A stretch of 64,000 nt of DNA. It comes from an uncultured Candidatus Sumerlaeota bacterium (lineage in GTDB: Bacteria > Sumerlaeota > Sumerlaeia > MVZB01 > JAJFLK01). Both the position numbers and the translations under genes were made by a program. The stretch spans positions 342,327 through 406,326 of the forward strand of contig CAZRCZ010000001.1 in the NCBI GenBank assembly GCA_964598765.1, read 5' to 3'. Below are positions 6,416-48,140 of this stretch, piece by piece. The number at the start of each line of letters is the position of its first letter. Position 1 is the first letter of the stretch. The notes under the pieces are model-generated. The model did no database searches, was not told where the DNA came from, and was given only the letters and a program-made list of their open reading frames with translations.

Positions 6416-8907
6416 TGAAATCTCTCATCGCCCGTGAACGCGGACTTCCGCTGTTTTGCTTGGGATCGGCGTTGATTTTGGTGTATGGGCGATTTTTCAT
6501 CGGCTTCGCTCCCGCCGGACGCGACATCGTTCTTCAATATCTCCCATATCAGCAATTGGTCCGGCAGGCGATTTGGCGCGGCCAATGGCCGCTTTGGAAT
6601 CCGGCGACGTTTTGCGGGCGTCCGCTCATGGCCGACATTCAGGTCGGCGTTCTCTATCCTCCGAATTGGCTCCACTGGGTTCTTCCGCTCCCCGTTTCGT
6701 TTGCGATTCTTTTTCTCGCGCACACGGCTTGGTCGCTTTGGGGTTGCTTTCGGTTGGGGAAGACTTGGAATTTCAGTTCTCCGGCTTCTTGCCTCACGGC
6801 GGTTCTTTACACTTTCTGTGGATTTCTCTCGGTCAAACTTCAGACCGGAATCATTTTGTTTCACTACGCGGCGTCGTGGCTTCCGTGGTCCGTGCTCGCC
6901 TTGACGGCGTTGTATCGCGCTCCGTCGCTACGGAGCGCGATTGTTCTGGGGCTCGCTCTTGCCATGTCGTTGTTGGCCGGCGCGCCGCAGATCGCGTTTT
7001 ATTCGTGGCTTCTGGTTGGGGGATTGGCGGTGGGATTGACGTTGGGAGGGAAAAGGGTGGAAGGCGAGGAGCAAAAGGCGATAATCGGAGCGAAAGGAAA
7101 ATTTCTCTGTGGCGTCGCGGGGGCGTTTGGCTTGGCGGTTGCGTTGACGCTGATCCAAACCTATCAGACCTATCAAATGACGAGCGTTTCATTTGATCGG
7201 GGATTGAACGTCGGGATATCGAAACGCTGGGAGACGATGACGGAAGGCTCTTTGCGTCCTGATTTGATGTCCTTGATCCTCGATCCCGATTGGTTCGGTC
7301 CGGGAAATGACGAGATGCAATACGCCGGACCGGAAACGGGCTTCTCCGAGGCGTGCGCTTATCTCCCTTGGCTCGCGTGGGGACTCTTGCTTCCGCTGGG
7401 AGAGTTGATGTGGCGTTCTCTTTCCACTCGGGCGCGCCGAATATTTATTTGTTCGCTCCTCCTTGCAATTTTTTCAGTTTTGATGGCGATGGGACATTAT
7501 TCGCCGATTTTCCGTTTCTTCTTCGATCATGTTCCCGGATTCGATCTTTTCCGCGTTCCCGCGCGATGGATGTTCGGATTCAACGTCGCCGTCTCCGTCG
7601 CCTCCGGAGCGGTTTTCGACGAACTTCTCCGCGCGCGCCCTTTGACGGAAAAATCAAAGTGGACCCTTTTAATTGTGGTTGGTTTGTCTCTTGCCGGCCT
7701 TGCGGCTGTCCGCCTTGGTGTCCGGCAATCGAATTCAGCGCGCGGCGTTGAGACCTTTGCTCCGATTTTCAAACTCTCCATTCCCATCCTTGTAGCAATA
7801 TTCTCGGTGTGGTTATTCGCTTTTTTCCCTGTCCACGTAGGTCGGGCTTGTAGCCAGGCGAATGGTCGCCTTGAAAGGCCGACGTACAATCTTCTCCAAT
7901 TTCTTATTCCGCTATTGGCGACATTGGACCTCGCGCTTGTCGCATGGCCGAATCAAGCCGCCGTCCGCGCCGACAAGTTTTATTCGACCTTCTATTCTCA
8001 AACCCCTCTGGTGAAAAAGTTGAAGGAGATGTCAGCCGGAGGCAGAGTTCTCTGGACCGACGGACTCCTCGACTGGCATCTGGATCAAAACACGCCCGAA
8101 GTCGTCACCAATACCCTCATCATGCAAGGGATGACCGACGCGCGCGGATACGATCCGGTCAACGCGTGGTGGATCGGGACGTGGTTCAATCGTCTCGCGG
8201 GCCTGCCGCCGGAAAATAATCCGAGAGGCTATATGCGCGTCCCGAAAATCGCGCTACCCCCGTGGCTGACGTTGATGGGAGTCGAAACGATTCTGAGCTA
8301 TGAAGACTTGTCATCCCTGCCTGAACTTCAACTTGCGGACCGCGTTGATTTTCCCGAAGGACCGTTGGGGATTTGGACAAACAAAAATTATCGCGGCCTT
8401 GCCTTTGCGGTTCCCTCCGATTCCTCGGAAACAAACGTGGAACTTGATGATCGCGCGAAGGCTCAATCCCTCTCCCAACGCGCCGCTCTTTCGAATCCGA
8501 CCGATCCTCTCAAAGCCGTAGTCTTCGATTCTCTCAATTTTCATCCTTCATCCTTCATCCCTCATCCTTTCGGCGTCCGCGCCGTTGAGGAGGGTCCGAA
8601 TCGTTTTGCCTATCAAACCGATTTCCCCGACGCCGCCCCGTTGCTTTTCGCGCAAAGCGCGTATCCCGGCTGGAGCGTCAAGGTCAACGGCGCTTACGCA
8701 CCGCTTTCCGTCGTGTGCGGCACGTTTTTGGCGGTCGCGGTCCCCGCCGGAAAAAGTCTTGTGGAGTTCGAATATTATCCGCCGTCGGGATTTGAATGGG
8801 CCGAACTGACGAGCCTTGCGACGGCAATCGTCATGATCTTTTGCTTGATCCGCGATTGGCGAAAGGGGAAAACAGACGCTCCGATCAAACCGCAAACTCA
8901 ACCATGA
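6415..8907 (+). CDS. YfhO-family polytopic membrane protein (GT-C-like)
   Basis: ~830-aa ORF, multiple hydrophobic segments, N-terminal region QYLPYQQ...GQWPLWNPATFCGRPLMADIQVGVLYPPNWL resembles YfhO family. ATG at 6415 overlaps the lon stop (TGA 6413-6415); ORF-track start 6412 is TTG. Confidence 0.6.
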   Translation: MKSLIARERGLPLFCLGSALILVYGRFFIGFAPAGRDIVLQYLPYQQLVRQAIWRGQWPLWNPATFCGRPLMADIQVGVLYPPNWLHWVLPLPVSFAILFLAHTAWSLWGCFRLGKTWNFSSPASCLTAVLYTFCGFLSVKLQTGIILFHYAASWLPWSVLALTALYRAPSLRSAIVLGLALAMSLLAGAPQIAFYSWLLVGGLAVGLTLGGKRVEGEEQKAIIGAKGKFLCGVAGAFGLAVALTLIQTYQTYQMTSVSFDRGLNVGISKRWETMTEGSLRPDLMSLILDPDWFGPGNDEMQYAGPETGFSEACAYLPWLAWGLLLPLGELMWRSLSTRARRIFICSLLLAIFSVLMAMGHYSPIFRFFFDHVPGFDLFRVPARWMFGFNVAVSVASGAVFDELLRARPLTEKSKWTLLIVVGLSLAGLAAVRLGVRQSNSARGVETFAPIFKLSIPILVAIFSVWLFAFFPVHVGRACSQANGRLERPTYNLLQFLIPLLATLDLALVAWPNQAAVRADKFYSTFYSQTPLVKKLKEMSAGGRVLWTDGLLDWHLDQNTPEVVTNTLIMQGMTDARGYDPVNAWWIGTWFNRLAGLPPENNPRGYMRVPKIALPPWLTLMGVETILSYEDLSSLPELQLADRVDFPEGPLGIWTNKNYRGLAFAVPSDSSETNVELDDRAKAQSLSQRAALSNPTDPLKAVVFDSLNFHPSSFIPHPFGVRAVEEGPNRFAYQTDFPDAAPLLFAQSAYPGWSVKVNGAYAPLSVVCGTFLAVAVPAGKSLVEFEYYPPSGFEWAELTSLATAIVMIFCLIRDWRKGKTDAPIKPQTQP

Positions 8908-9212
8908 ACAAAACTCCCCCACCCAAAACCCTCAATCACCCATCCAATCTGCCGGATCGCCTCTCGATGGACCGCACGTTGTTATCCAATGAGCGCACCC
9001 TGCTCGCTTACATTCGGACGGCGCTGACGGCGGTGATCGTCGGCATCTCTCTCATCAAATTATTCGCCACCGTGCTGGTTATTGTCATTGGTTGGGCGTT
9101 TTTGGGTCTGGGGATTTTGATTACATGGTGGGGTCTGGTCCGATACCAACAAGTCAAACGCCTCGTGCGAAAAATGGAGGAAGAGGACTTCGGTCCGCGC
9201 GATCCGACGTAA
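8904..9212 (+). CDS. DUF202 (YidH-like) small membrane protein
   Basis: Motif LSNERTLLAYIRTAL followed by two hydrophobic helices. ATG 8904 overlaps the stop of the upstream gene (ATGA). Confidence 0.65.
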   Translation: MNKTPPPKTLNHPSNLPDRLSMDRTLLSNERTLLAYIRTALTAVIVGISLIKLFATVLVIVIGWAFLGLGILITWWGLVRYQQVKRLVRKMEEEDFGPRDPT

Positions 9213-9258
9213 GAATTGGCCTGCGAAAGACGCGAAGGATGCGAAAATTGAATTTGAA

Positions 9259-11223
9259 TTACGGCTTGGACGAAGTCGGTTTCTTCTCGGACGCTTCCGC
9301 AAGCCGATTAACAACCATCGAGACGGTAAGCAATCCATCCGGTAGCACGATTGGCTCGCCCGGGCGTCCAGCGGGAAAAACCACATAGAGCGGCACGCCG
9401 CTCCTGCCGAACTGATGCAGGACTCGGGTGATTTCCGGCGAGCGGTTTGTGTAATCCGCCTTGAGCGTAATTACATTGTATTTCGCAAGAGCGTCTTGAA
9501 TCGCCTGAGTGGCGAGAACGGCTTTTTCATTCACCTTGCATGTCAAGCACCAATCGGCGGTGAAATCCACGAAGACGGTTTTATTTTCCGCCGCCAGCTT
9601 TTCGACCAAATCCACGCTGAACGATTGCCATTGGATTTTGCCATCGGCGATTGAAACTGTTTGGCGCGCGTCAATTCCGGGTTTTTCCTTTACTCTCAGA
9701 AATCTTTCGGGAAAATAAAGATAGGACACAAGAATCAACGCCGATGCTGAAGCGGCGAAGGTGAGCCGCTTCTTATTTGTTGCTCGCAGATCAAATCCGA
9801 GACCGAGCAACCAGCAAGCCAATCCTACCACCGTCAAAAAAGCCAGCGTTTGAATGATACCCTCCGAACCGATTTGTCCTCCCACGACCGACAACAACCA
9901 CACCACAGTCGCCATCAAAAGAAATCCCATTATCTGTTTGAAGACGTCCATCCACGCGCCCGGTTTGGGCATGAATTTGAGCCAGCCCGGTTTGGCGGTC
10001 AGCAAAACGTAAGGCGAGGCTAGCCCGCCGGCAATGGCGAGAAAAAAAAGATAAATGACGAGCGGCGGTTGCGCGAAGGCAAATCCCAAGGCGGGAGCCA
10101 GTAGGGGAGCCGTGCAGGGCGTCGCTAAAGCCGTGGCTAGTACGCCGTTGAAAAACGCCCCAGCCGCCCCCTCACGTCTTTGCAATCCTTCCACCCCTTC
10201 GATGGCCGTCCCGGGCAGTTCGACGGTGAAGACTCCGAAGAGGCTCAACCCGAACGCGAAGACAATCGCGCACATGAGAATCACGAAGCGCGGTTCTTGG
10301 AATTGAAATCCCCACCCGATTTGCGTTCCCGCGCCTTGAACCGCAACGACCACCGACGCCAAGGCGGCGAAGGATGCGAAAACTCCCAAGGCAAAAACAA
10401 GACCGAGCCGGAAAACACGCTTCGGTTCTTCGCCCGATTGTCGGACAAAACTCAAAATTTTGATCGAAAGGACGGGCAAAACGCAGGGCATGATGTTCAG
10501 CAACAGCCCGCCCAAAAACGCGAAGACCAAGAAACCGATCGTTGATTTCTCCGCTTTCGATTCCTTTTTCTCCTTCAAAAAAGAAAATACCTGTCCCTGC
10601 TCCGTCGCCTTGATCCCTTGCTCTTTTGGCGGAGTCGCCGTCGTCGCGACAGGGGTGGAGATCGGAGTCTCGCGTGGAACAGTCTCCGCGTAGTGATCGA
10701 ACAAAGAGGAGAAAGCCGAAGCGGCCGCTTTGCCGGCGGAAAGCGAAAGTTCAATTTCCATTTCTCCCGGAATACATTGGCCGTCCAGCTTGCAGACGAG
10801 CCAGTTCGTCTTGGCGGAAAGCTTATATTTCTTGTCGGACTCCAAATTCGTCGTCGGCGTCACGGAGGCGAAAATCAAAACCTCACTCTCGTAGCCGATA
10901 TTGACGATCCCGGCGGTTTCGATTCTTTTCGGCTCCGGCCATTGCAAGGGTCCGGCGGTGAATCCCTCGGGGAGTTCCCAATGGATTTCGGTCGGCAGGC
11001 CGATTTCTCCCGGCGTGTGCCAATAGATGTGCCACTGTGGGTCTATCTTGAACAACGCGCCGAGCCGGAACGGTTTCCCCGGCTCGATGGCGTCGGTATC
11101 GGCGATCAGCGAAACTTGAACGTGTTCTTCCTTTGCCGAAACCGCCGACGCAAAGCAAAAAGCGGCCATAAAAATTAGCAACGACGTTCGGCCGGTCTGT
11201 GAGCCTTGTTGCATCGAGTTCAT
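9259..11223 (-). CDS. dsbD: Thiol:disulfide interchange protein DsbD
   Basis: Signal peptide, central cytochrome-c-biogenesis-type transmembrane region (NIMPCVLPVLSIK), C-terminal thioredoxin fold with WCLTC motif. Start taken at ATG 11223 (signal peptide MNSMQQ...). Confidence 0.85.
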   Translation of the reverse strand: MNSMQQGSQTGRTSLLIFMAAFCFASAVSAKEEHVQVSLIADTDAIEPGKPFRLGALFKIDPQWHIYWHTPGEIGLPTEIHWELPEGFTAGPLQWPEPKRIETAGIVNIGYESEVLIFASVTPTTNLESDKKYKLSAKTNWLVCKLDGQCIPGEMEIELSLSAGKAAASAFSSLFDHYAETVPRETPISTPVATTATPPKEQGIKATEQGQVFSFLKEKKESKAEKSTIGFLVFAFLGGLLLNIMPCVLPVLSIKILSFVRQSGEEPKRVFRLGLVFALGVFASFAALASVVVAVQGAGTQIGWGFQFQEPRFVILMCAIVFAFGLSLFGVFTVELPGTAIEGVEGLQRREGAAGAFFNGVLATALATPCTAPLLAPALGFAFAQPPLVIYLFFLAIAGGLASPYVLLTAKPGWLKFMPKPGAWMDVFKQIMGFLLMATVVWLLSVVGGQIGSEGIIQTLAFLTVVGLACWLLGLGFDLRATNKKRLTFAASASALILVSYLYFPERFLRVKEKPGIDARQTVSIADGKIQWQSFSVDLVEKLAAENKTVFVDFTADWCLTCKVNEKAVLATQAIQDALAKYNVITLKADYTNRSPEITRVLHQFGRSGVPLYVVFPAGRPGEPIVLPDGLLTVSMVVNRLAEASEKKPTSSKP

Positions 11224-38067: not shown

Positions 38068-38442
38068 TCAAGCTTTGGGCTTCTTCGCGCCGTATTTGGA
38101 CCGGCTTTTCTTTCGGTTGGCCACTCCTTGGGTGTCCAAAACGCCCCGCAGGATGTGGTAGCGGATGCCGGGCAGATCCTTGACGCGCCCTCCGCGAATC
38201 AGCACGATCGAGTGCTCTTGAAGGTTGTGCCCCTCCCCCGGAATATAGGCCGTGACCTCGTGGCCGTTGGTCAGCCTCACGCGAGCCACCTTGCGCAGGG
38301 CCGAATTCGGCTTCTTCGGCGTCTGAGTGTAAACTCTCAGGCATACCCCCCGTTTTTGCGGACAGGCGGCGAGGGCGGGAACCTTGTTTTTCTTGCGAAT
38401 GGGAACCCGTCCCTTGCGAATTAGTTGATTGATCGTCGGCAT
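38068..38442 (-). CDS. rpsL: 30S ribosomal protein S12
   Basis: [12 protein letters not shown]...[37 protein letters not shown]; start at internal ATG 38442 of the longer ORF-track entry. Confidence 0.95.
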
Positions 38443-38582
38443 CGAACCTCTCTCTGTTGGCTGGATTCCCCCGGTTTTGTTCTCCAAGGGAATTCCAAAC
38501 CCTTGATTCAACCAGCTTTGATTGCGGGAGTCAAGGGGGGATAGCGTTTTTTTTCTGCTGGGATGGGTATCAAAATTCGGAG

Positions 38583-38624
38583 CCACAACCGAGCAGTGAC
38601 CGCACGGTCGCGGCTCGGTTGTGG
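38583..38624 (-). terminator. Hairpin immediately downstream of hemA stop
   Basis: Perfect 12-bp stem ccacaaccgagc / gctcggttgtgg with 18-nt loop, directly after the hemA stop codon. Confidence 0.5.
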
Positions 38625-38629
38625 TTTCA

Positions 38630-39946
38630 TTAATCCCCGCGATGATGATTTTTCAATTCCTGCATCGAAAGATGAAGGAGCCGTTGTTTGAGGCGGTGTT
38701 GCGCGGCGCGGATTTTTTCGCGGGACGATTCGGACAGATCGCGTTCCATGTCCGTTTGGATTTCGTCAAAAACCTCGTCGAAATGTTTTTTCAAACGCTC
38801 CAGCGCCGGGGCGAGCGAAACCGCCTGAAGCTTGGATCGAAATTTTTCGATCTCCTGCTCGATTAACTCCCACGCTTTCTGCGCGGCGGCGGTCCGTTTG
38901 GCTCGATTCTCGGCGATGATTCCTTCGAGATGGCTGATGTCCAAGAGCGTGACGCCGGGGATGGATCCGATGGCGTGGTCCAGAATGCGCGGGACCGCCG
39001 CGTCAATGAGGCAGACCCGGCGATTTTCGGACCCGGGACCGCGAAGGCTCTCGAACATCGCGCGCGTGACAAGAAAATTCGGCGCGAAAGCCGCGCCGAG
39101 AATCAGATCGGCCTGACGGATCGCGGGAGCCATTTGCGGAATCGGCACGATTTCGGCGTTCAGTCCGCGCGCGACCTCCTGAGCCTTTTCCACCGTGCGG
39201 TTCACGATCAGCAACTTGGCGGGACGACGCTCGGCGATGGCTTCGGCGGCGACGCGCCCGACTTTCCCCGCGCCGATGACGACGCAAACTTTTCCCTCGA
39301 ATGATCCAAGAATTTGCTCGGCGCGGAGCGTCGCGGCCTTGGCGACGGAAAGCGTGCCGACGTTCAAATCGGTTTCGGTCCGGATGCGTTTGGAGCATCG
39401 GTTGGCCGCTTCGATGAGACGATGCAAGTTTGCTCCGGCCATGCCCGTCTGTTTGCTCATTTCATACGCCTGCCCGACCTGCGATTTGATCTCGTTTTCG
39501 CCGAGGATCATCGAATCCAATCCGGCCTCGACCGCGAAGAAATGGCGGACGGCTTCGAGGTCTTCATAATTGTAGAGCGGCGGAACGTGATCCGGCTCCA
39601 ATTTCCCTCCAGCGAGCGAGAGAAAAAATTCGCGCAAGGTTTCGATGAAATTTTCCTCCAGCGGACTATAGACGTAAATTTCGGTTCGATTGCAGGTCGA
39701 AAGAACCAAGGCCTCCCCGGCGAGTCCCTCGTTCCGCAGGCGTTCCAGCGTTTGTAGGCATCGTTCCGGCGCGAGCGCGAATTTCTCGCGGACGCCGATG
39801 GCCGCGCGATCTTGGTTCACGCCGCACACAAAAAGGGTCGAGGTGGATGTGGTCGGGACGGAGTGTGTCTCTCGATCCTTCACGCGCAAATCCTCTCCCT
39901 CGCCCGGCTGTATGGACTTCGCGGAATGTTGAGTCGGTCGGGATCT
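38630..39946 (-). CDS. hemA: Glutamyl-tRNA reductase
   Basis: [20 protein letters not shown]...[14 protein letters not shown] and NADPH-binding domain. ATG 39946 overlaps stop of upstream hemY-like gene (ATGA). Confidence 0.9.
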
Positions 39947-41394
39947 CATGAAGGTCTGCCCGCCACAACGCTGATTTTTTGCGCCTGCGTCCGCGCTAAT
40001 TCGATGCGGTCGTTGATCGAGACGCCTTGCCGCCAGTTGCCGAAAAAATGAAGCCCCGGATGGCGGCGCTCCACGCCTTCGATCAACGCTTCCACCTCGA
40101 AATAATCCATTCCATATCGCGGAATGGCCCGGTTCCATCGCTCGATGTGGATCGCCTTTGCCTTGCCGTTCCAGTCGAGCGCGAATCCGAGATCATGACG
40201 GACCACCTTGAGTATTTCTTCGTCGCTGAGGTTGATCGCGGAAGGATCGAGATCGCCGCCGAGCATGACCGTCAGCGCGGCGCAACCGGCGGGCGCGCGT
40301 CCGGGAAAGATGTTGGAATTGAAAATCGTTCCCAGAATCCGCAATCCCTGATCGCGGGCGACAAGAAATCCGAATCCGGAGGGAATTTTCAGATCGCCGA
40401 CCTCAACGCCAAGGCCGACGCAAATCAGGGGGCAATAGGGAATGGCCTTTAATCGCGACGCCAATTCCGGCTCGAAATGTTCGATCAGCTTCCCGGCCGA
40501 TTGCGTTTCGGAGCTAAGGATGACTAGCTTCGCCCGAAACACTGTTTCTTTTCCCCGCAGTCGGCCCGTGATTTGAAAACCACCGGAATCCGATCCGGCC
40601 ATGATTTCGCAAACCTCCGCTTCCGGTCGGTAGGAGTCTCCGAGAAAATCCGCAAGGGAGTCGGTCAATTGCGCAATACCCTTTTGGAATGAAACGAGAT
40701 GAGTTTCCTTGGATGAGGCGCCGTCTTTCGAGGTAGCGCGTTGCGTCTTCATTCGACTAAAGAAACCCCGGATCACGCTTCGGTGATCAGCCTCAAATTC
40801 CTTCAAGGTTGGGAACGAAGCGCGCGCGCTCATCTGCGCCGGATCGCCTGCCCAAATCCCCTGAACCATCGGCAGGAATGCTCGATGATAAATTTCCTTT
40901 CCCAACCGGCGCACGACGAAATCCTTGAGCGTTTCATCGGCGTCCACGGGGGAAATCCAAGCTTCGCGGGCGAGGCGACACTTTGCTCCAAACGAAAGCA
41001 AGGAGGAGCGGATCAAACTCAGTGGACCCGTCGGAACAATGTGAAGACGGTTGTCGCGCCAAATGTAGCGGTTCTGCGATTTCAGAGGCGCGCGAACCGT
41101 TTGATCTTCCATCCCGGCCAAGTTGAGCAGTTCGTTAAACGCCGCGGATTTGTCCAGAATCGTATTGGGGCCCCGCTCAAAGAGAAATCCGTCCGCTTCA
41201 ATCGAACCGATGACCCCGCCCGGGTGATCGGATTTTTCGAGAACCAAGACGGCCATGCCCGATTTCTTCAGCCATGCGGCGAGAGACAGACCGGAAATTC
41301 CGCCGCCGACGATCATGACGGGTTCATTCGCCGGCGCGGAATCTTCAGGCCGGGGTCTTTGCGAAGAAGAAGAGGTTGCCATCGCCGTCGCCAC
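39946..41394 (-). CDS. hemY: FAD-dependent protoporphyrinogen/coproporphyrinogen oxidase (HemY family)
   Basis: N-terminal FAD-binding VMIVGGGISGLSLAAWL and amine-oxidase-like fold in a heme operon; cannot distinguish PgoX from CgoX by eye. Confidence 0.75.
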   Translation of the reverse strand: MATAMATSSSSQRPRPEDSAPANEPVMIVGGGISGLSLAAWLKKSGMAVLVLEKSDHPGGVIGSIEADGFLFERGPNTILDKSAAFNELLNLAGMEDQTVRAPLKSQNRYIWRDNRLHIVPTGPLSLIRSSLLSFGAKCRLAREAWISPVDADETLKDFVVRRLGKEIYHRAFLPMVQGIWAGDPAQMSARASFPTLKEFEADHRSVIRGFFSRMKTQRATSKDGASSKETHLVSFQKGIAQLTDSLADFLGDSYRPEAEVCEIMAGSDSGGFQITGRLRGKETVFRAKLVILSSETQSAGKLIEHFEPELASRLKAIPYCPLICVGLGVEVGDLKIPSGFGFLVARDQGLRILGTIFNSNIFPGRAPAGCAALTVMLGGDLDPSAINLSDEEILKVVRHDLGFALDWNGKAKAIHIERWNRAIPRYGMDYFEVEALIEGVERRHPGLHFFGNWRQGVSINDRIELARTQAQKISVVAGRPS

Positions 41395-41404
41395 GTTTGA
41401 GTCC

Positions 41405-42820
41405 TCAGAGCGTCCGGGAATAAAGCGGCCGTTTGCTCGCCGCTTGTTGCCGTTTTAGATGCGCGTCAAAGAGCATCGCGACGTTGCGGACGAAAAGCCG
41501 CCCCATGAACGAAAGACGGATCGAATCGCGCTCATTGACGAGCAATTCATCGGCGATCATCGGCGCGAGCGACTGAAGTTCGTCCTCGAAGTAGCGATTG
41601 AAATCAATATGAAAATCCTCGCTGATGCGGAGTTTGTCAATGCGGTCCTTGCACATCAAATCGCCGATAACGCGACGGCGAATTTGATCGTCTTCGTTCA
41701 AGATCAGGCCGCGCTCGATTGGAAATCGCCCCGAGTCCAAAGATTCCGAATAGGCGGTCAGCTTCTTGACGTTCTGCGCGAACATCTCGCGGACCGAACT
41801 GATCGAAGAAACGCCCATCGCGATCAGATCGGTTCCTGCGCGCGTGGTGAAACCCATGAAATTGCGATGCAGGGTTCCTCCATTGAACGCCCGCGCAAGC
41901 TCGTCGTCGGGGAGAGCGAAGTGATCCATGCCGATATAACGATAACCCGCCTCGGTAAATCGGTCGTGCGCGGCGAGAAAAATTCTCAACTTCGCCTCGC
42001 CATCCGGCAAGGAGGCCGGATCGAGCGTCCGCTGATGCGCGAGTCGTTGCGGCAAAAAAGCAAAGTTGTAAAGCGCGATTCGGTCGGGGCGCGAGGTCAA
42101 AACTTTTTCGAGCGTCTCGGAAAAAGTTTCCTCCGTTTGATAGGGCAAGCCGTAAATCAAATCGTAGTTGATTCCGGAGAATCCGACCTCACGGGCGAGC
42201 CGCGTGATTGCGTCCGTTCGCTCGTAACTTTGGAGCCGATGGACAGCGCGTTGCGTCCGTTCGTTGAAATCCTGAACTCCCATCGAAAGGCGGTTGAATC
42301 CAAGTTGCGCCAGCGTCCGAATTTGCTCGTCGGTTGTGATCGGCGGATGAATCTCGATGGAATTTTCGCAGTCGGAGGCGAGATGAAACCGGTCCGCGAT
42401 CATGGCGTGGGTCCGCCGAATCTGGTCGCAATCCAAATAAGTCGGCGTTCCGCCTCCCCAATGAAATTGGACGACCGGCCGCGACGGATCATTGTGACGC
42501 GCGTGCAACTCAATCTCGCGCTCCAGCTTTTCCAAGTATGGATCGGAGACCTCGCGTCCCTTCGCGCTGATGATCACGTTGCACGCGCAAAACGTGCAGT
42601 GCTCCTCGCAGAAGGGAATATGCAGGTAGATGGAAAGGGGGCGTCCCTCCCAATCGGCCTTGACCCGATCCAGATGCCGCGCGAATTCCTCGTGGCCGAC
42701 CGATTCGTTCCACTCCGGTGCGGTCGGATAGGACGTGTAGCGCGGTCCGGCCAAATCGTATCGGCGGAGAAATTCCCGATCGAGATCGCGCAGGCGGCGC
42801 GTTTCGTTAACAGACGCCAT
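41405..42820 (-). CDS. hemN: Oxygen-independent coproporphyrinogen III oxidase-like radical SAM protein (HemN family)
   Basis: GPRYTSYPTAPEW, radical-SAM cluster motif HIPFCEEHCTFCACN, 471 aa. Confidence 0.85.
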   Translation of the reverse strand: MASVNETRRLRDLDREFLRRYDLAGPRYTSYPTAPEWNESVGHEEFARHLDRVKADWEGRPLSIYLHIPFCEEHCTFCACNVIISAKGREVSDPYLEKLEREIELHARHNDPSRPVVQFHWGGGTPTYLDCDQIRRTHAMIADRFHLASDCENSIEIHPPITTDEQIRTLAQLGFNRLSMGVQDFNERTQRAVHRLQSYERTDAITRLAREVGFSGINYDLIYGLPYQTEETFSETLEKVLTSRPDRIALYNFAFLPQRLAHQRTLDPASLPDGEAKLRIFLAAHDRFTEAGYRYIGMDHFALPDDELARAFNGGTLHRNFMGFTTRAGTDLIAMGVSSISSVREMFAQNVKKLTAYSESLDSGRFPIERGLILNEDDQIRRRVIGDLMCKDRIDKLRISEDFHIDFNRYFEDELQSLAPMIADELLVNERDSIRLSFMGRLFVRNVAMLFDAHLKRQQAASKRPLYSRTL

Positions 42821-43898
42821 AGCGTTTCACCGCCTCGACGAGCCTGCACGCATTTTCCACGGGCGTTTGGGGAAGAACGCCATGACCGAGATTGAAAACG
42901 TGTCCGGTGGCCGGAGGGAACTGCGCGAACAAATCACGGACCGCCAGTTCGACCGTGTCGGGATTGGTGTAGAGAACCAAAGGGTCGAGATTGCCTTGAA
43001 GCGACGCGCCTCCGTTGGGGCGCTGGCTTTCCAGATTGCGTTCCTCATCATTGACAATCGCGCGCGCAGAGGCGAGATCAAGTCGCCAATCAATGCTGAG
43101 GCAATCGGCTCCGATGCGGGCGAGCGACGGGAGGTAAGGCGCGCAACCGTTGACGTAAACGATTACCGGCGCGCCCAGTCCTCGGACCGATTCGATGATC
43201 CGGCGAATCCACTTTCCGGAAAATCGCTCGTAATCCGACTGCCGCAGGGCCGAACCCCACGTGTCGAAAATCTGAACGGCGTCGGCTCCGGCCTCGATCT
43301 GAATCCGAAGATACTGCGCCGCGACTTGGGTAATGCGCTCCAGAATTGAATCGAGCAGATTTGGTTTTTCCCAACGCAAGCGGAGGATGGATTCAAAATT
43401 GCGCGACATGACCCCTTCGATCCAATAGGCCGCGAGCGTCCACGGCGCGCCGACGAATCCGAGAATGGGGAAATCGCGTCCCGCGCGTTCGCGGACGGTT
43501 TGGATCGTCCGCGCGACCGGTTCCTCGGCGTCCAATGCGCGTCCGCGAAGATTCCGCAAATCTTCTTCGGAACGAATCGGGTTGAGAATCTGCGGACCGC
43601 GGTCGTCGAATTTGATCTTCGCTCCCGCCGACTCCAGCGGAATGAGGATGTCGTTGAAAATGATGATCGCGTCCGCATCGAGCGCTTCGACGGGTTGGAT
43701 CGAAACCTCCGTCGCCGCGCGAGGCGTCTTGCAAAGCGTCAGGAAATCGTATTCCTTTCGGACCTTCTGATATTGCGGCAAATAACGTCCCGCTTGCCGC
43801 ATCAACCAAACGGGAACGCGATCCACCGGTTTTCGCCGCAGTGCGTTGAGCAACCGCTCGCGCGGGGTGAGAACGGGTTTGGTTGGATTAAGATTCAT
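42807..43898 (-). CDS. hemE: Uroporphyrinogen decarboxylase
   Basis: RRKPVDRVPVWLMRQAGRYLPQY signature; start at ATG 43898 (MNLNPTK). Overlaps hemN start by 14 nt. Confidence 0.9.
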   Translation of the reverse strand: MNLNPTKPVLTPRERLLNALRRKPVDRVPVWLMRQAGRYLPQYQKVRKEYDFLTLCKTPRAATEVSIQPVEALDADAIIIFNDILIPLESAGAKIKFDDRGPQILNPIRSEEDLRNLRGRALDAEEPVARTIQTVRERAGRDFPILGFVGAPWTLAAYWIEGVMSRNFESILRLRWEKPNLLDSILERITQVAAQYLRIQIEAGADAVQIFDTWGSALRQSDYERFSGKWIRRIIESVRGLGAPVIVYVNGCAPYLPSLARIGADCLSIDWRLDLASARAIVNDEERNLESQRPNGGASLQGNLDPLVLYTNPDTVELAVRDLFAQFPPATGHVFNLGHGVLPQTPVENACRLVEAVKRYGVC

Positions 43899-44150
43899 GA
43901 TACGATCGCGGCCAAGGGAGAAGCGGGTCTGCCAAAAGCTCCTTCCCCCTAGGCACACACTTCCATCATGCCCGTCGCGCCGAATCGCGGTCAAGCGAGA
44001 AGGAACGAACGGCGATATCGCGGGAGTAATCATGGCGTTGAAAGCGGGCCTTTGACCGAAGCGCCTGCCTCACTCTCTACAACCTGTTCAAGAGTTGAAC
44101 TGAAACCGGGAAAACGCCAATATGATTTCGAGAAGCTCGCAAGACAAGGC

Positions 44151-44522
44151 ATGAAAGTTCTCAGTATTTGCATGGATACTTCAATCATCGGGGGGTCCGA
44201 CGAGGAGTTCGCCGAGGAAGGCCGCGCGTTACTCGAAAACGCCAAAGCCGGGGAGGCGAACTTGGTGGCTTCTGACCTTTAGCCGGAGGCACTTGCCAGA
44301 GCGCCTGTGGAAGTGAAATCCGTTTTCAACGCGTTGTCCGAAGAATGTCAAGAGCGGGTTCTCGCCGACGTCCAATCCGAGCCTCTGAAGGACCAATTTG
44401 CGGTGGTGGGCGTTCTCGAACCTGTTTCCAAACAGGACGCGCATCACGTCGCGCTGTCGACCGCTTCCGATTGCGCTGTGATCGTAAGTTGGAATTTCAA
44501 ACACATTGTGAATTTTAGGTAA
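44151..44522 (+). pseudogene. PIN-domain (VapC-like) gene interrupted by an in-frame TAG at 44280-44282
   Basis: ORF-track entries 43968-44282 and 44307-44522 are in the same frame, separated by one amber codon. Joined product ~123 aa with MKVLSICMDTSIIGG N-terminus, QDAHHVALSTASDCAVIVSWNFKHIV C-terminus, resembling PIN nucleases. Confidence 0.5.
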
Positions 44523-44601
44523 ATTCCGACGTATAATGCCGTCAACATCCTGAGGGGATATTTGGACGGTCCAATGTTTTCTCCTTTGGAGGTTGTAACT
44601 G

Positions 44602-44835
44602 ATGCCAAACAGGTCCAAGAGATTCGACTGCGTAGGGATGAATTGTCAAGGCGCAGACAAGATTCGCCGCGCGATCAGAGGAATGAACCAGAACGAAGAG
44701 TTGGTCTATCGGTCGCAGGGAACGGCGCGATTGCTGGAACAGCAGGCGTCAATTCGGCGGACGATGGGAAACGCTCCGAACGGAAGAAAGCCCAGTGGAA
44801 GGATTGGAGTTCGAGTTGAAGGCATCGGGAATTAG
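44602..44835 (+). CDS. Hypothetical small protein
   Basis: 77-aa ORF with GGAGG 9 nt upstream of ATG; no recognisable family. Confidence 0.25.
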   Translation: MPNRSKRFDCVGMNCQGADKIRRAIRGMNQNEELVYRSQGTARLLEQQASIRRTMGNAPNGRKPSGRIGVRVEGIGN

Positions 44836-44908
44836 GTTGGAGGTCGCTTCCTGCGCACTTGAGGATTTATTTGGGGTAAATCCCTTCGATGACTTTACGG
44901 CGATAGAG

Positions 44909-45289
44909 ATGAGTTGGATTACGACAGATAAAAAGGCGATTCGCGGTTTTCTCTACGGAAGCGTGGTCATTTCCATGCTGACCCCCAAAATCCTCTTGGC
45001 TTTGGGAGCGGAACCGTTGAAAATCGGATGGATTGTCGGTTTCTCGGTCATGGTTTACCCGTTCTTGTGCCTTGTAGTTGGGGGTTGCCTCTTGCTAAAC
45101 CGACCCGCAGAAATTCTTATATCGAAGTTCGGCTCCGGAAAATTTAGGGGCGGAGTAATTCTGCTGGTCAAGATGATGCAAGGCGCGATGGCCGCCGCAC
45201 TGATGCTCATTGTCGGGTTGATCGCTATTATTATTTTGGGATTTGCTGTGGAGGTGTTGCGTGGAACTATAAGGGGATCGCCGAATTGA
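44909..45289 (+). CDS. Small polytopic membrane protein, paralog A
   Basis: 126 aa from ATG 44909 (MSWITTDKKAIRGF...); 3-4 hydrophobic helices; paralogous to 45327-45707. Confidence 0.5.
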   Translation: MSWITTDKKAIRGFLYGSVVISMLTPKILLALGAEPLKIGWIVGFSVMVYPFLCLVVGGCLLLNRPAEILISKFGSGKFRGGVILLVKMMQGAMAAALMLIVGLIAIIILGFAVEVLRGTIRGSPN

Positions 45290-45326
45290 TGCCTCGACGC
45301 GGAGATATCGTGGGTGTCGCGAGAAC

Positions 45327-45707
45327 ATGAGTTGGATTTCCACTCGCAAAAAAGGAATCCGTGCTCTGTTCTGGGTTTCTTACCTCCTTTGCATTCTGGC
45401 CTTCTTACTTGGACCCATCAAATTGCCGTTCGATCCGGCGTGGTCTTCCCTTTTGCTCGTTATATCCATCTTTTGCGTCGTGTCTTTGTGGCTGTTGATG
45501 GTCTATGAAACGCTTTCACTCAAAATAATCCGGTGGCTCGGACCGGGGAAACCCGGCGAGAAAACGAATTGGGCGAAGAAAGCCGCTCTACAGCTATTGC
45601 TTTTGTTGTCTACTCTCGTGATCGGAATCACGTTGCCGACAATGGTAGTGATTTGTCTGTCTCTGATCTTCTTCTATGCCTCGCGAAAATTGGTAGGCTT
45701 GTTCTAG
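45327..45707 (+). CDS. Small polytopic membrane protein, paralog B
   Basis: 126 aa (MSWISTRKKGIRALF...), same length and N-terminal motif as paralog A; similar nucleotides upstream of both start codons. Confidence 0.5.
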   Translation: MSWISTRKKGIRALFWVSYLLCILAFLLGPIKLPFDPAWSSLLLVISIFCVVSLWLLMVYETLSLKIIRWLGPGKPGEKTNWAKKAALQLLLLLSTLVIGITLPTMVVICLSLIFFYASRKLVGLF

Positions 45708-45730
45708 CCGTTGACGGTAAAATCGCCTTA

Positions 45731-46876
45731 ATGAAGGGATCCTTGCAAGAACTCGCTCTCGGTTCCATCCGCGATCCTGAAATTGATCCGCTCCTCAAAC
45801 GTGCGGTTGCGGGCAGGCGTCTCTGCGACGCCGAGGCCGAGCGGCTTTTTGAGAGCCATGATCTCTTGGCAATCGGTCGCGCGGCACACGCCGTCCGGAT
45901 GCATAAGCATCCCGAACCGGTCGTCACCTTTAACGTTGACCGCAACATCAATTACACGAACATCTGTGAAATTGATTGCTCGTTTTGCGCATTCTATCGC
46001 AAAGAGGGAAACAGCGACGCCTACGTTCTGACGCGCGAGCAATTCCGCCAAAAGATCCACGAATTGATCGAGGCGGGAGGAAATCAAATCCTCATGCAGG
46101 GGGGATTGCATCCCGATCTGCCGTTCGAGTGGTATGAGGATCTTCTGCGCTGGTTGCGAACCGAATTTCCGATGATCCATCTCCATTGCTTTTCGCCGAC
46201 GGAGATTTCGTTTTTCCGCGACAAATTTGGTCTCTCGCTTGAGGAGATCATTTCGCGGCTGATGAAGGCGGGGCTTCATTCGATCCCCGGCGGCGGGGCT
46301 GAAATTTTGAGCGACCGCATCCGCGACAAAATCTCCCCCGAAAAAACCTCCGCCGACGATTGGCTGGAGGTCATGCGCGTCGCGCATCGGCTCGGTCTGC
46401 GCACCAGCGCAACGATGATGTTCGGCATCATTGAATCTTACGCCGACCGCGTCGAGCACCTGCGGAGACTGCGCGATCTGCAGGACGAAACGGGAGGCTT
46501 CACCGCGTTCATCGCTTGGACGTTCCAGCCAAAAAACACCCCCTACAAGGACCGCTTCTGCGGCGCGTTCGAGTATCTGAAAACCGTCGCCATTGCGCGG
46601 CTCTATCTCGACAACTTCGAGAATCTTCAGGCGAGTTGGGTGACGCAGGGGGAGAAAATCGCCCAGCTTTCGCTTCTGTTCGGCGTCAACGACTTGGGAT
46701 CGCTCATGCTGGAGGAAAACGTCGTCCGCGCCGCAGGAACCAACTTTATGCTGACCAAAACCGACCTCAAGGCGATGGCCGAGGAACTCGGCTTTGAACT
46801 CCGCCAGCGCAATTTCTTTTACCAGCCGTTCACCCCTCCGGCGCGTCCGATTGCCGATCCGGTATTGGCGGCGTAA
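45731..46876 (+). CDS. Radical SAM protein of the MqnC/MqnE (futalosine-pathway menaquinone biosynthesis) family
   Basis: CEIDCSFCAFYR radical-SAM cluster motif and overall similarity to MqnC/MqnE/CofH-type enzymes; subfamily not resolved. ATG at 45731. Confidence 0.65.
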   Translation: MKGSLQELALGSIRDPEIDPLLKRAVAGRRLCDAEAERLFESHDLLAIGRAAHAVRMHKHPEPVVTFNVDRNINYTNICEIDCSFCAFYRKEGNSDAYVLTREQFRQKIHELIEAGGNQILMQGGLHPDLPFEWYEDLLRWLRTEFPMIHLHCFSPTEISFFRDKFGLSLEEIISRLMKAGLHSIPGGGAEILSDRIRDKISPEKTSADDWLEVMRVAHRLGLRTSATMMFGIIESYADRVEHLRRLRDLQDETGGFTAFIAWTFQPKNTPYKDRFCGAFEYLKTVAIARLYLDNFENLQASWVTQGEKIAQLSLLFGVNDLGSLMLEENVVRAAGTNFMLTKTDLKAMAEELGFELRQRNFFYQPFTPPARPIADPVLAA

Positions 46877-46958: not shown

Positions 46959-48140
46959 TCATTCCGGCCAAGGGATGTTCTTATCGGCGAATAATCGCCG
47001 ATAGACTTTTTTTTGCTTCTCGATCACCATTTCCTCGCTGAAAAATTCCTCGGCGCGGCGTCTTCCGGCTTCGCCCACTTTTTTTCTCAGATCGGGGGAG
47101 GCGAGAAGCTCGGCCAAGGCGTCGGCCAGCGCGTCGGCGTCGCGCGGCGGGATGAGCCGTCCGGTCCGGCTGTCCACGACCTCCTCCCGGCAACCGCGAA
47201 TGTCGGACGCGATCACCGGCAATCCGCTGGCCATCGCCTCCAGAATCGAGCGCGGCATACCCTCGCGCCAAGAGGGAAGAACGAACAGGTCGCTTGCGGC
47301 CAGCAGACGCGGAACGTCACGGCGCAATCCCGCGAAAATGACGCAATCGGCCAGATGGAATTCGTTGACCTTGGCGTGGATTTCTTCAGCCGAACGGTCA
47401 TGTTCGCTCGGCAATGCCTCGCCTATGACGACGGCGCGCGCGTTGGGGAAGCGTTCTCGAATTTTTGCCCACGCCTTCAAAAATTCCAGATACCCCTTCT
47501 CCCGCACGAGCCGCCCCATCATCGTCACGACGGGACCTTCGCCGGGTTTGATTCCCAATCCGGCGCGAACCTCGGCGCGCTCGTCCACGCGCAAAAGATC
47601 GGGACGGAATTTTTGGAGGTCAACCCCGTTGCCGATGGTCATGGCGCGGTCGAGCGGCGCGATCTTGCAGGCGACGGCGGTTTGCAGGTCTTCCTCGCTC
47701 TGCGAAAAAAGAAAGTCGGCTTTGCGTTGCGCCCAACGCTCCAGCGCGATGTAAACCGCGCGGACGAGCGGACTCATCCGGTCATGAAAATAAAATCCGT
47801 GCGCAGTGTAAAGGACGAGCGGGACGCCGGAGCGTCGCGCCGCCGGACGCCCCAGCAACGCCGCGACCGGCGTGTGAACGTGAACGACCGTGTAATCCGC
47901 CGTCTTGAACAACTTGCGAAGCCCGCGATAACCTTGGATTAGTTTCAGCGGATTTTTGCTCCGGGAGATCGGCACGGCGCGGACGGGGAATCCCTCGGCC
48001 TGAATCGCCGGAACAAAAACCCCGGGCGCGCAGGCCAACTCGACTTCAAATCCCCATTCCCTCTGCGCGCGCATCAGGGGCAGGAGAAAATGATAAGCCG
48101 TGAAATCCACGGCGCAGAGCTGGAGGACGCGGGGTTTCAT
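46959..48140 (-). CDS. Glycosyltransferase family 4 (GT-B fold)
   Basis: 393-aa; GT4 C-terminal signature (GLPVIASDIRGCREEVVDSRTGRLIPP). Confidence 0.8.
   Translation of the reverse strand: MKPRVLQLCAVDFTAYHFLLPLMRAQREWGFEVELACAPGVFVPAIQAEGFPVRAVPISRSKNPLKLIQGYRGLRKLFKTADYTVVHVHTPVAALLGRPAARRSGVPLVLYTAHGFYFHDRMSPLVRAVYIALERWAQRKADFLFSQSEEDLQTAVACKIAPLDRAMTIGNGVDLQKFRPDLLRVDERAEVRAGLGIKPGEGPVVTMMGRLVREKGYLEFLKAWAKIRERFPNARAVVIGEALPSEHDRSAEEIHAKVNEFHLADCVIFAGLRRDVPRLLAASDLFVLPSWREGMPRSILEAMASGLPVIASDIRGCREEVVDSRTGRLIPPRDADALADALAELLASPDLRKKVGEAGRRRAEEFFSEEMVIEKQKKVYRRLFADKNIPWPE

Follow-up and report, generated by a model that had tools for sequence, protein, structure and literature searches.

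A putative orphan pair of small membrane-protein genes with a shared N-terminal peptide in a variable slot upstream of mqnC

What kind of genes, if genes they are, lie between a broken PIN-domain gene and mqnC, the gene for cyclic dehypoxanthinyl futalosine synthase, in the genome of an uncultured bacterium, and where could they have come from? The question is raised by two adjacent open reading frames (ORFs) on contig CAZRCZ010000001.1 of assembly GCA_964598765.1, within the 64,000 nucleotides (nt; positions 342,327 to 406,326 of the forward strand) that form the whole of the DNA analyzed here and that we call the window, with coordinates counted from its first letter. ORF A (44909..45289) and ORF B (45327..45707) are both on the + strand, encode exactly 126 amino acids (aa) each, in keeping with what a preliminary description of the locus had reported, and have a common layout and nearly the same grand average of hydropathy (GRAVY, 1.12 for A and 1.10 for B). 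Together they take up most of the interval between the genes on either side, leaving 73 nt between a 77-aa ORF and A, 37 nt between A and B, and 23 nt between B and mqnC. The reading that we favor, and to which we grant somewhat better than even chances, is that A and B are a real orphan pair of small, very hydrophobic inner-membrane proteins, which arose by an old tandem duplication, keep a constrained N-terminal peptide, and occupy an accessory slot of the genome.

All significant sequence similarity between the two proteins lies in their first 12 residues. The common start proposed in the preliminary description, MSWI[T/S]T[D/R]KK[A/G]IR, is borne out as the consensus of both: the A copy, MSWITTDKKAIR, encoded at 44909..44944 (+), and the B copy, MSWISTRKKGIR, encoded at 45327..45362 (+), are identical at 9 of 12 residues, with z = 10 in local and 6.8 in global alignment against shuffles. 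At the nucleotide level, the first 12 nt of the two ORFs are the same, and exact copies of this start, ATGAGTTGGATT, occur within the window only at A and B, while a 17-nt pattern with at most two mismatches would be expected to give 0.07 matches by chance. When the 12 motif codons are set side by side, five are identical, four differ synonymously, and three differ nonsynonymously, the synonymous differences falling at T6, K9, I11, and R12, that is, at four of the nine conserved residues. From these differences it follows that the motif is conserved as protein rather than as DNA and that the duplication is not recent. The whole proteins align with z = 5.3–5.9, all of it contributed by residues 1–12; BLASTP of A against B, as a single comparison of whole proteins, gives E = 0.023, and B was not among the hits of an exhaustive phmmer search with A (E ≤ 0.001).

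That A and B are tandem duplicates, as the preliminary description had also proposed, is plausible, and we infer such an origin from the motif, the equal length, a three-helix layout that both share, a common distribution of charge, and a G-x-G-K sequence that stands in the central basic loop of both (GSGK at 75–78 in A, GPGK at 72–75 in B). The likeness of their hydrophobic profiles, already noticed from the sequence, is confirmed by a correlation of r = 0.69 between the Kyte–Doolittle profiles and by matching helix boundaries. Two parts of the case for duplication do not stand: residues 13–126, to which we return below, and the nucleotides just upstream of each ATG, which had been described as similar and which, over 60 nt, score no better than chance (local score 6.5 vs. 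6.4 ± 1.2 in shuffles, p = 0.44).

With regard to what such proteins would look like, both sequences are consistent with insertion in the membrane, and their description as membrane proteins of unknown function remains apt. In A, a basic N-terminal peptide precedes hydrophobic segments at residues ~14–33, 39–63, and 82–117, with a basic loop at 64–81; in B, the basic loop spans 61–85. Structure prediction, which had been suggested as a check and was run on the monomers, returned three long helices for each protein, with boundaries that match between the two: single-sequence AlphaFold2 places helices at 2–31, 36–74, and 77–122 in A (mean predicted local distance difference test, pLDDT, 73.8) and at 3–28, 37–70, and 81–125 in B (mean pLDDT 73.3). 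Lysines and arginines (K+R) are distributed alike over the N-terminus, central loop, and C-terminus (3, 4, and 2 in A; 4, 6, and 2 in B), with one in the first loop of each. According to the positive-inside rule, this distribution puts the N-terminus and central loop of both proteins on the cytoplasmic side: a model with four spans has 9 K+R inside versus 1 outside in A and 12 versus 1 in B, and a model with three spans has 7 versus 3 and 10 versus 3. The C-terminus would be inside with four spans and outside with three, the latter being the number in the AlphaFold2 models. A and B are thus both predicted, from sequence, to have their N-terminus in, and it follows from this common orientation that any complex between them would be parallel rather than antiparallel. 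The first transmembrane segment (TM1) of A (14–33) contains K27 and neither D nor E, and that of B (13–30) contains no charged residue. Overall, each protein may be pictured as a short basic cytoplasmic peptide, MSWIxTxKKxIR, followed by a hydrophobic helical hairpin, then by a strongly basic cytoplasmic loop with G-x-G-K, and finally by a long hydrophobic C-terminal region, which would be either one helix of ~45 residues, as AlphaFold2 models it, or, by the positive-inside rule, a pair of short spans. A strongly amphipathic N-terminal helix was also considered and set aside, the hydrophobic moment being modest (0.23–0.44).

Whether A and B encode proteins at all can be asked of the DNA in several ways. 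Both are predicted as genes by the NCBI and Logan gene callers, the product of A being P0001 (126 aa) in NCBI and that of B being P0002, for which NCBI and two Logan assemblies give the same call. A codon log-likelihood score trained on the genes of the window, which themselves range from 0.20 to 0.47, ranks the annotated frame best of six for both ORFs, with 0.226 for A and 0.135 for B and at most 0.005 for the other frames. When 44836–45730 is shuffled with its dinucleotides preserved, two ORFs of 126 codons or more turn up on the same strand in only 0.17% of cases, and polar residues are grouped into loops to a degree that shuffled sequences seldom reach (A, p = 0.04; B, p = 0.004). Noncoding explanations were sought as well: Rfam gave nothing at E ≤ 1 over 43800–46200, and a scan of the window for tRNAs found none. 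Taken together, codon usage, the rarity of such a pair by chance, the clustering of polar residues, and the synonymous changes within the motif suggest that A and B are real genes, which would then be translated.

The start of A calls for a comment. An in-frame extension that begins at a GTG (44795..44908, +) would give a 164-aa form with 38 additional residues, acidic and soluble; this is the version called in the Logan assemblies, its extension has a codon score of 0.219, and it shares 41 nt with the end of the 77-aa ORF. B has no such alternative, as an in-frame TAA stands at 45270–45272 and no ATG, GTG, or TTG follows it before 45327. Because B can start only at 45327, we prefer, by analogy, the ATG at 44909 over the GTG at 44795 as the probable start of A.

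Searches for relatives returned essentially the two proteins themselves, and the earlier statement that they belong to no recognizable family has held up. Neither A nor B has a match beyond noise in Pfam or NCBIfam (the nearest being PufX, E = 0.12, and MAG0130, E = 0.18), and PHROGs yields none at E ≤ 1; in PADLOC the sole match is that of A to a "2TM effector" model (E = 0.19, 9.4 bits), with none for B. Word-indexed searches with A and with B against 5.8 billion protein clusters recovered self only, and an exhaustive phmmer search with A against 1.84 billion cluster representatives recovered self and one spurious match. The latter, P0003, is a 1234-aa repeat protein in which the repeat FYGTGFYKGGSIAFLKAE matches residues 55–94 of A five times, and it was rejected as a relative since the match is driven by the repeat. 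No relatives were found either when viral (IMG/VR) and metagenome contigs were scanned for MSWI[TS]T[DR]K and for patterns of the single proteins, and tblastn of A and B against 50,697 phage records and against plasmid records gave nothing. Judged by sequence comparison, A and B are lineage-specific orphan genes.

The same conclusion emerges from the position of the pair, when it is compared with that of mqnC in other genomes. The closest genome by MqnC is a Candidatus Sumerlaeota metagenome-assembled genome (MAG; L003), whose MqnC is 84% identical, the next best being at ~58%, which makes this phylum the probable origin of the window. L003 keeps the block formed by the PIN gene, the small ORF, and mqnC; homology with it ends at ~44723 (blastn) or 44760 (tblastx) and restarts at ~45692 (tblastx) or 45787 (blastn), which delimits a variable cassette at 44760..45691 that carries A and B and has no DNA or translated likeness to the corresponding stretch of L003 (~9024–9541). 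Instead of A and B, the L003 slot holds a single soluble ORF of 165 aa (9087–9584, +), which overlaps the start of mqnC by 4 nt and bears a weak likeness to PD-(D/E)XK endonucleases (PF11645, E = 0.0017; phrog_5018, E = 2.7e-5). This different occupant suggests that the interval between the PIN module and mqnC is a variable accessory hotspot. In a more distant locus from a Joint Genome Institute (JGI) metagenome (L083, 70% identical in the N-terminus of MqnC), there is neither an insert nor a PIN module, and mqnC (650–1798) follows, after a gap of 9 nt, the 3′ part of a CofH/Mqn-type radical SAM gene (41–640), a layout which may represent the ancestral arrangement. Of the 97 mqnC loci that come with 600 nt or more of upstream sequence, not one is preceded by two small hydrophobic ORFs in tandem, and tblastn of A and B against 112 foreign mqnC loci gave nothing below E = 0.2. 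The preliminary description had regarded the lack of the pair in every related genome as an outcome that would speak against its account; as far as the data reach, such a lack is what was found in L003, in L083, and at the 97 mqnC loci. A and B thus occupy, in this lineage alone, a slot whose content varies.

How well does the reading of A and B as a real pair from an old duplication withstand the rest of the evidence? Several results weigh against it. Past the motif, residues 13–126 show no likeness above shuffles (z = 0.02 by Smith–Waterman and 1.5 in global alignment), and the best gapless diagonal has p = 0.20 under global shuffles and 0.65 under local-block shuffles. The AlphaFold2 models were made from single sequences and are of medium confidence (pLDDT ~73, predicted template modeling score, pTM, ~0.5), and long helices are the default output of AlphaFold2 for hydrophobic sequence. 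The codon score of A is at the low end of the range of the training genes, and that of B is below it. The region is T-rich and stop-poor, and chance gives one ORF of 126 codons or more in 15% of its shuffles. A clear Shine–Dalgarno sequence was found before neither A nor B, as is true of many genes of the window. Finally, the only other copies of the pair, which runs SRR12313479 and SRR12313480 provided as L001 and L002, match its DNA at 100% identity and so offer no comparative evidence of selection.

These results give some room to an alternative, in which A and B would be nonfunctional, that is, chance or decaying frames within the T-rich remains of an old insertion beside the PIN pseudogene, whose hydrophobicity would merely reflect T-rich codons. 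Such relics would be expected to look much as A and B do in some respects: no homologue was found among ~15 billion proteins, the adjacent PIN gene is itself a pseudogene, the codon scores are at or under the low end of those of real genes, a lone long ORF is not rare in shuffles, and the GC fraction falls to 0.49–0.50 at the pair versus 0.55–0.62 in the surroundings. This dip, however, comes mostly from codon position 1 (0.43–0.49), and GC at the third codon position (GC3, 0.59–0.60) is inside the genomic range of 0.55–0.75. Chance frames would also have to explain why two long ORFs fall on the same strand, at a rate reached by so few shuffles, why none of the five other frames scores as well as the annotated one in either, why the codon differences within the shared 12-residue start are in part synonymous, why polar residues are segregated into loops, and why the two frames agree in length and architecture. 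We therefore hold it unlikely that A and B are mere relics. As for the GC dip, its value as evidence of horizontal transfer was considered and found weak, since the dip is an effect of amino-acid composition at codon position 1 and GC3 is normal.

A second alternative accepts A and B as genes and restricts what they share to their 5′ ends: a start codon and ~36 nt would have been copied, or gene-converted, between two unrelated genes for small membrane proteins. The confinement of significant similarity to residues 1–12, with nothing above shuffles in the remainder, and the identity of the first 12 nt are what this scenario would predict. It accounts poorly for the fact that both proteins are exactly 126 aa long, that their helix boundaries match and their hydropathy profiles are correlated, and that a G-x-G-K loop stands near the same position in each, within the same distribution of charge; besides, the four synonymous differences in codons 6–12 speak against a recent conversion. 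We regard this scenario as rather doubtful, and slightly more so than that of relic frames. Under the favored reading, in which an old tandem duplication gave rise to both, the parts of the two proteins that lie in the membrane would have diverged until no likeness was left, while purifying selection would have preserved the N-terminal peptide. The pair would reside in an accessory slot of variable content, with a decayed PIN module on one side and mqnC on the other.

What such a pair would do can only be guessed at. The closest kind to which A and B can be compared is the heterogeneous class of taxonomically restricted genes for small membrane proteins in variable slots: like A and B, ORFan genes of this class are short, hydrophobic, without homologues, and fast-evolving, and they occur as tandem duplicates. 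The class includes orphan membrane proteins of immunity type that accompany toxin modules, and A and B likewise lie next to a remnant of toxin–antitoxin type (PIN); they differ in that no toxin partner, mobile-element hallmark, or defense-system model was detected. As a best guess, A and B might be an accessory pair in the membrane, dispensable and fast-evolving, of the immunity or effector type often seen beside toxin–antitoxin modules, and their N-terminal peptide, as the functional element common to both, might serve as a determinant of topology or insertion or as a site for binding a partner. This immunity- or effector-type function is speculative and counts among the weak points of our reading, PADLOC giving only the match of A at E = 0.19. 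The finding carries little weight beyond annotation: it adds two orphan genes for small membrane proteins to the record of a phylum that has been little sampled (probably Candidatus Sumerlaeota), indicates that related genomes differ in what lies before mqnC, and has no bearing on any open question; if the N-terminal peptide were functional, the pair would provide an example of a duplicated membrane protein constrained only in a short cytoplasmic motif.

A bolder version of this idea would see in A and B the founders of a new, fast-evolving family. The cytoplasmic 12-residue peptide would then be the functional module, with, for example, a docking or regulatory role, carried on drifting membrane anchors; the two proteins would perhaps be an effector–immunity or defense pair in a variable hotspot beside a PIN toxin module, or else the outcome of a recent de novo gene birth followed by duplication within Sumerlaeota. 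We consider this improbable.

Could A and B instead be extremely diverged members of a known family, such as the SMR/EmrE-type pairs, the Fluc/CrcB pairs, DgkA, the holins, or the immunity proteins of pore formers? The paired SMR proteins (YdgE/YdgF, also MdtIJ), Fluc/CrcB, and DUF606 are, like A and B, adjacent paralogues of ~105–130 aa with several hydrophobic spans and are presumed to form oligomers, and the length of 126 aa, the three to four hydrophobic spans, and the tandem layout of A and B do recall paired SMR and CrcB (PMC3962082). In these systems, however, the two members of a pair have opposite K+R biases and assemble in antiparallel fashion (PMC3962082), whereas A and B have the same N-in bias and, in the AlphaFold2 models, three long helices rather than four. 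The profiles of SMR/EmrE (PF00893) and Fluc/CrcB (PF02537) match neither protein at E ≤ 1, and more generally none of the families named here gives a Pfam or NCBIfam match at that threshold. The hallmark of SMR proteins is a conserved membrane-embedded glutamate in TM1, and the TM1 of A and that of B, unlike theirs, are free of acidic residues. DgkA (~121 aa, an N-terminal surface helix followed by three TM helices) is comparable to A and B in size and in the order of its helices, and DgkA chains are the top Foldseek matches of A (E = 0.57, TM-score 0.33, root-mean-square deviation ~10 Å), as NINJ1/2 is for B. All these structural matches are nonetheless insignificant: the best E-value against PDB folds is 0.57, with TM-scores of ~0.3–0.5, PF01219 does not match, and phmmer against PDB sequences returned nothing at E ≤ 10 for either protein. 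Membership in a known family is in our view very improbable.

A functional tie with the gene downstream, finally, in which A and B would serve MqnC or the futalosine pathway, perhaps by anchoring or scaffolding at the membrane the synthesis of menaquinone, itself a membrane lipid, has in its favor the common strand, the 23 nt that separate B from mqnC, and the lack of a convincing terminator before mqnC, but is equally remote, since the pair is absent before mqnC in L003 (84% MqnC identity) and in L083, a comparable pair occurs at 0 of 97 mqnC loci, and the L003 slot is filled by an unrelated nuclease-like gene. Because the pair is thus absent at the mqnC loci of relatives, A and B have no link to the futalosine pathway and are outside menaquinone synthesis. 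Under the favored reading of an accessory pair, A and B would probably share the direction of transcription of mqnC, and might be transcribed together with it. The sole convincing terminator-like hairpin of this region lies at 46981–47004, after mqnC, and weaker short-stem matches are found on the + strand at 45631–45650, inside B, and at 46960–46977; the total yield of the promoter and terminator scan was not above that of shuffles.

The neighbors of the pair are as had been described, namely, a PIN pseudogene upstream and an mqn gene downstream, the latter being identified as mqnC (45731..46876, +), the right flank of the cassette. Its product scores 485.6 bits with TIGR03699, for a cutoff of 428.1, and contains the domains Radical_SAM and CofH_C. 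The frame of mqnC is open from a GTG at 45533, and tblastx likeness to L003 in this frame begins ~39 nt before the annotated ATG (45692–45730), inside the 3′ end of B. The broken PIN-domain gene (43968..44522, +) consists of at least two ORF fragments, 43968..44282 and 44307..44522, which match residues 52–90 and 125–169 of an intact PIN_3 protein encoded at 8276..8890 of L003. It is followed by the conserved 77-aa ORF (44602..44835, +), which is intact and forms the left flank of the cassette; this ORF is 51% identical over 53 aa to the one at 8769..9086 of L003 (E = 4e-20), has no family match, and returned only itself in a protein search.

No significant flanking repeats were detected at the pair. 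A 16-nt inverted repeat (44744–44759 and 45279–45294, 15 of 16 positions complementary) brackets ORF A, its left arm standing exactly where homology with L003 ends and its right arm spanning the stop codon of A. It was considered as the possible ends of an insertion and rejected, as dinucleotide shuffling of the 2.1-kb region yields a repeat of equal quality in 16% of cases and this one is probably due to chance. At a larger scale, L003 has only the PIN-to-mqnC block in common with the window, and the genes on both outer sides of the block differ, from which it follows that the neighborhood has been rearranged between the two. In the window, a heme-biosynthesis cluster (GluTR, an amine-oxidase-type protein, a HemN-type radical SAM protein, and URO-D) occupies the opposite strand at 38201–44033, diverging from the strand of mqnC, and hemE lies within it at 42807..44033 (−).

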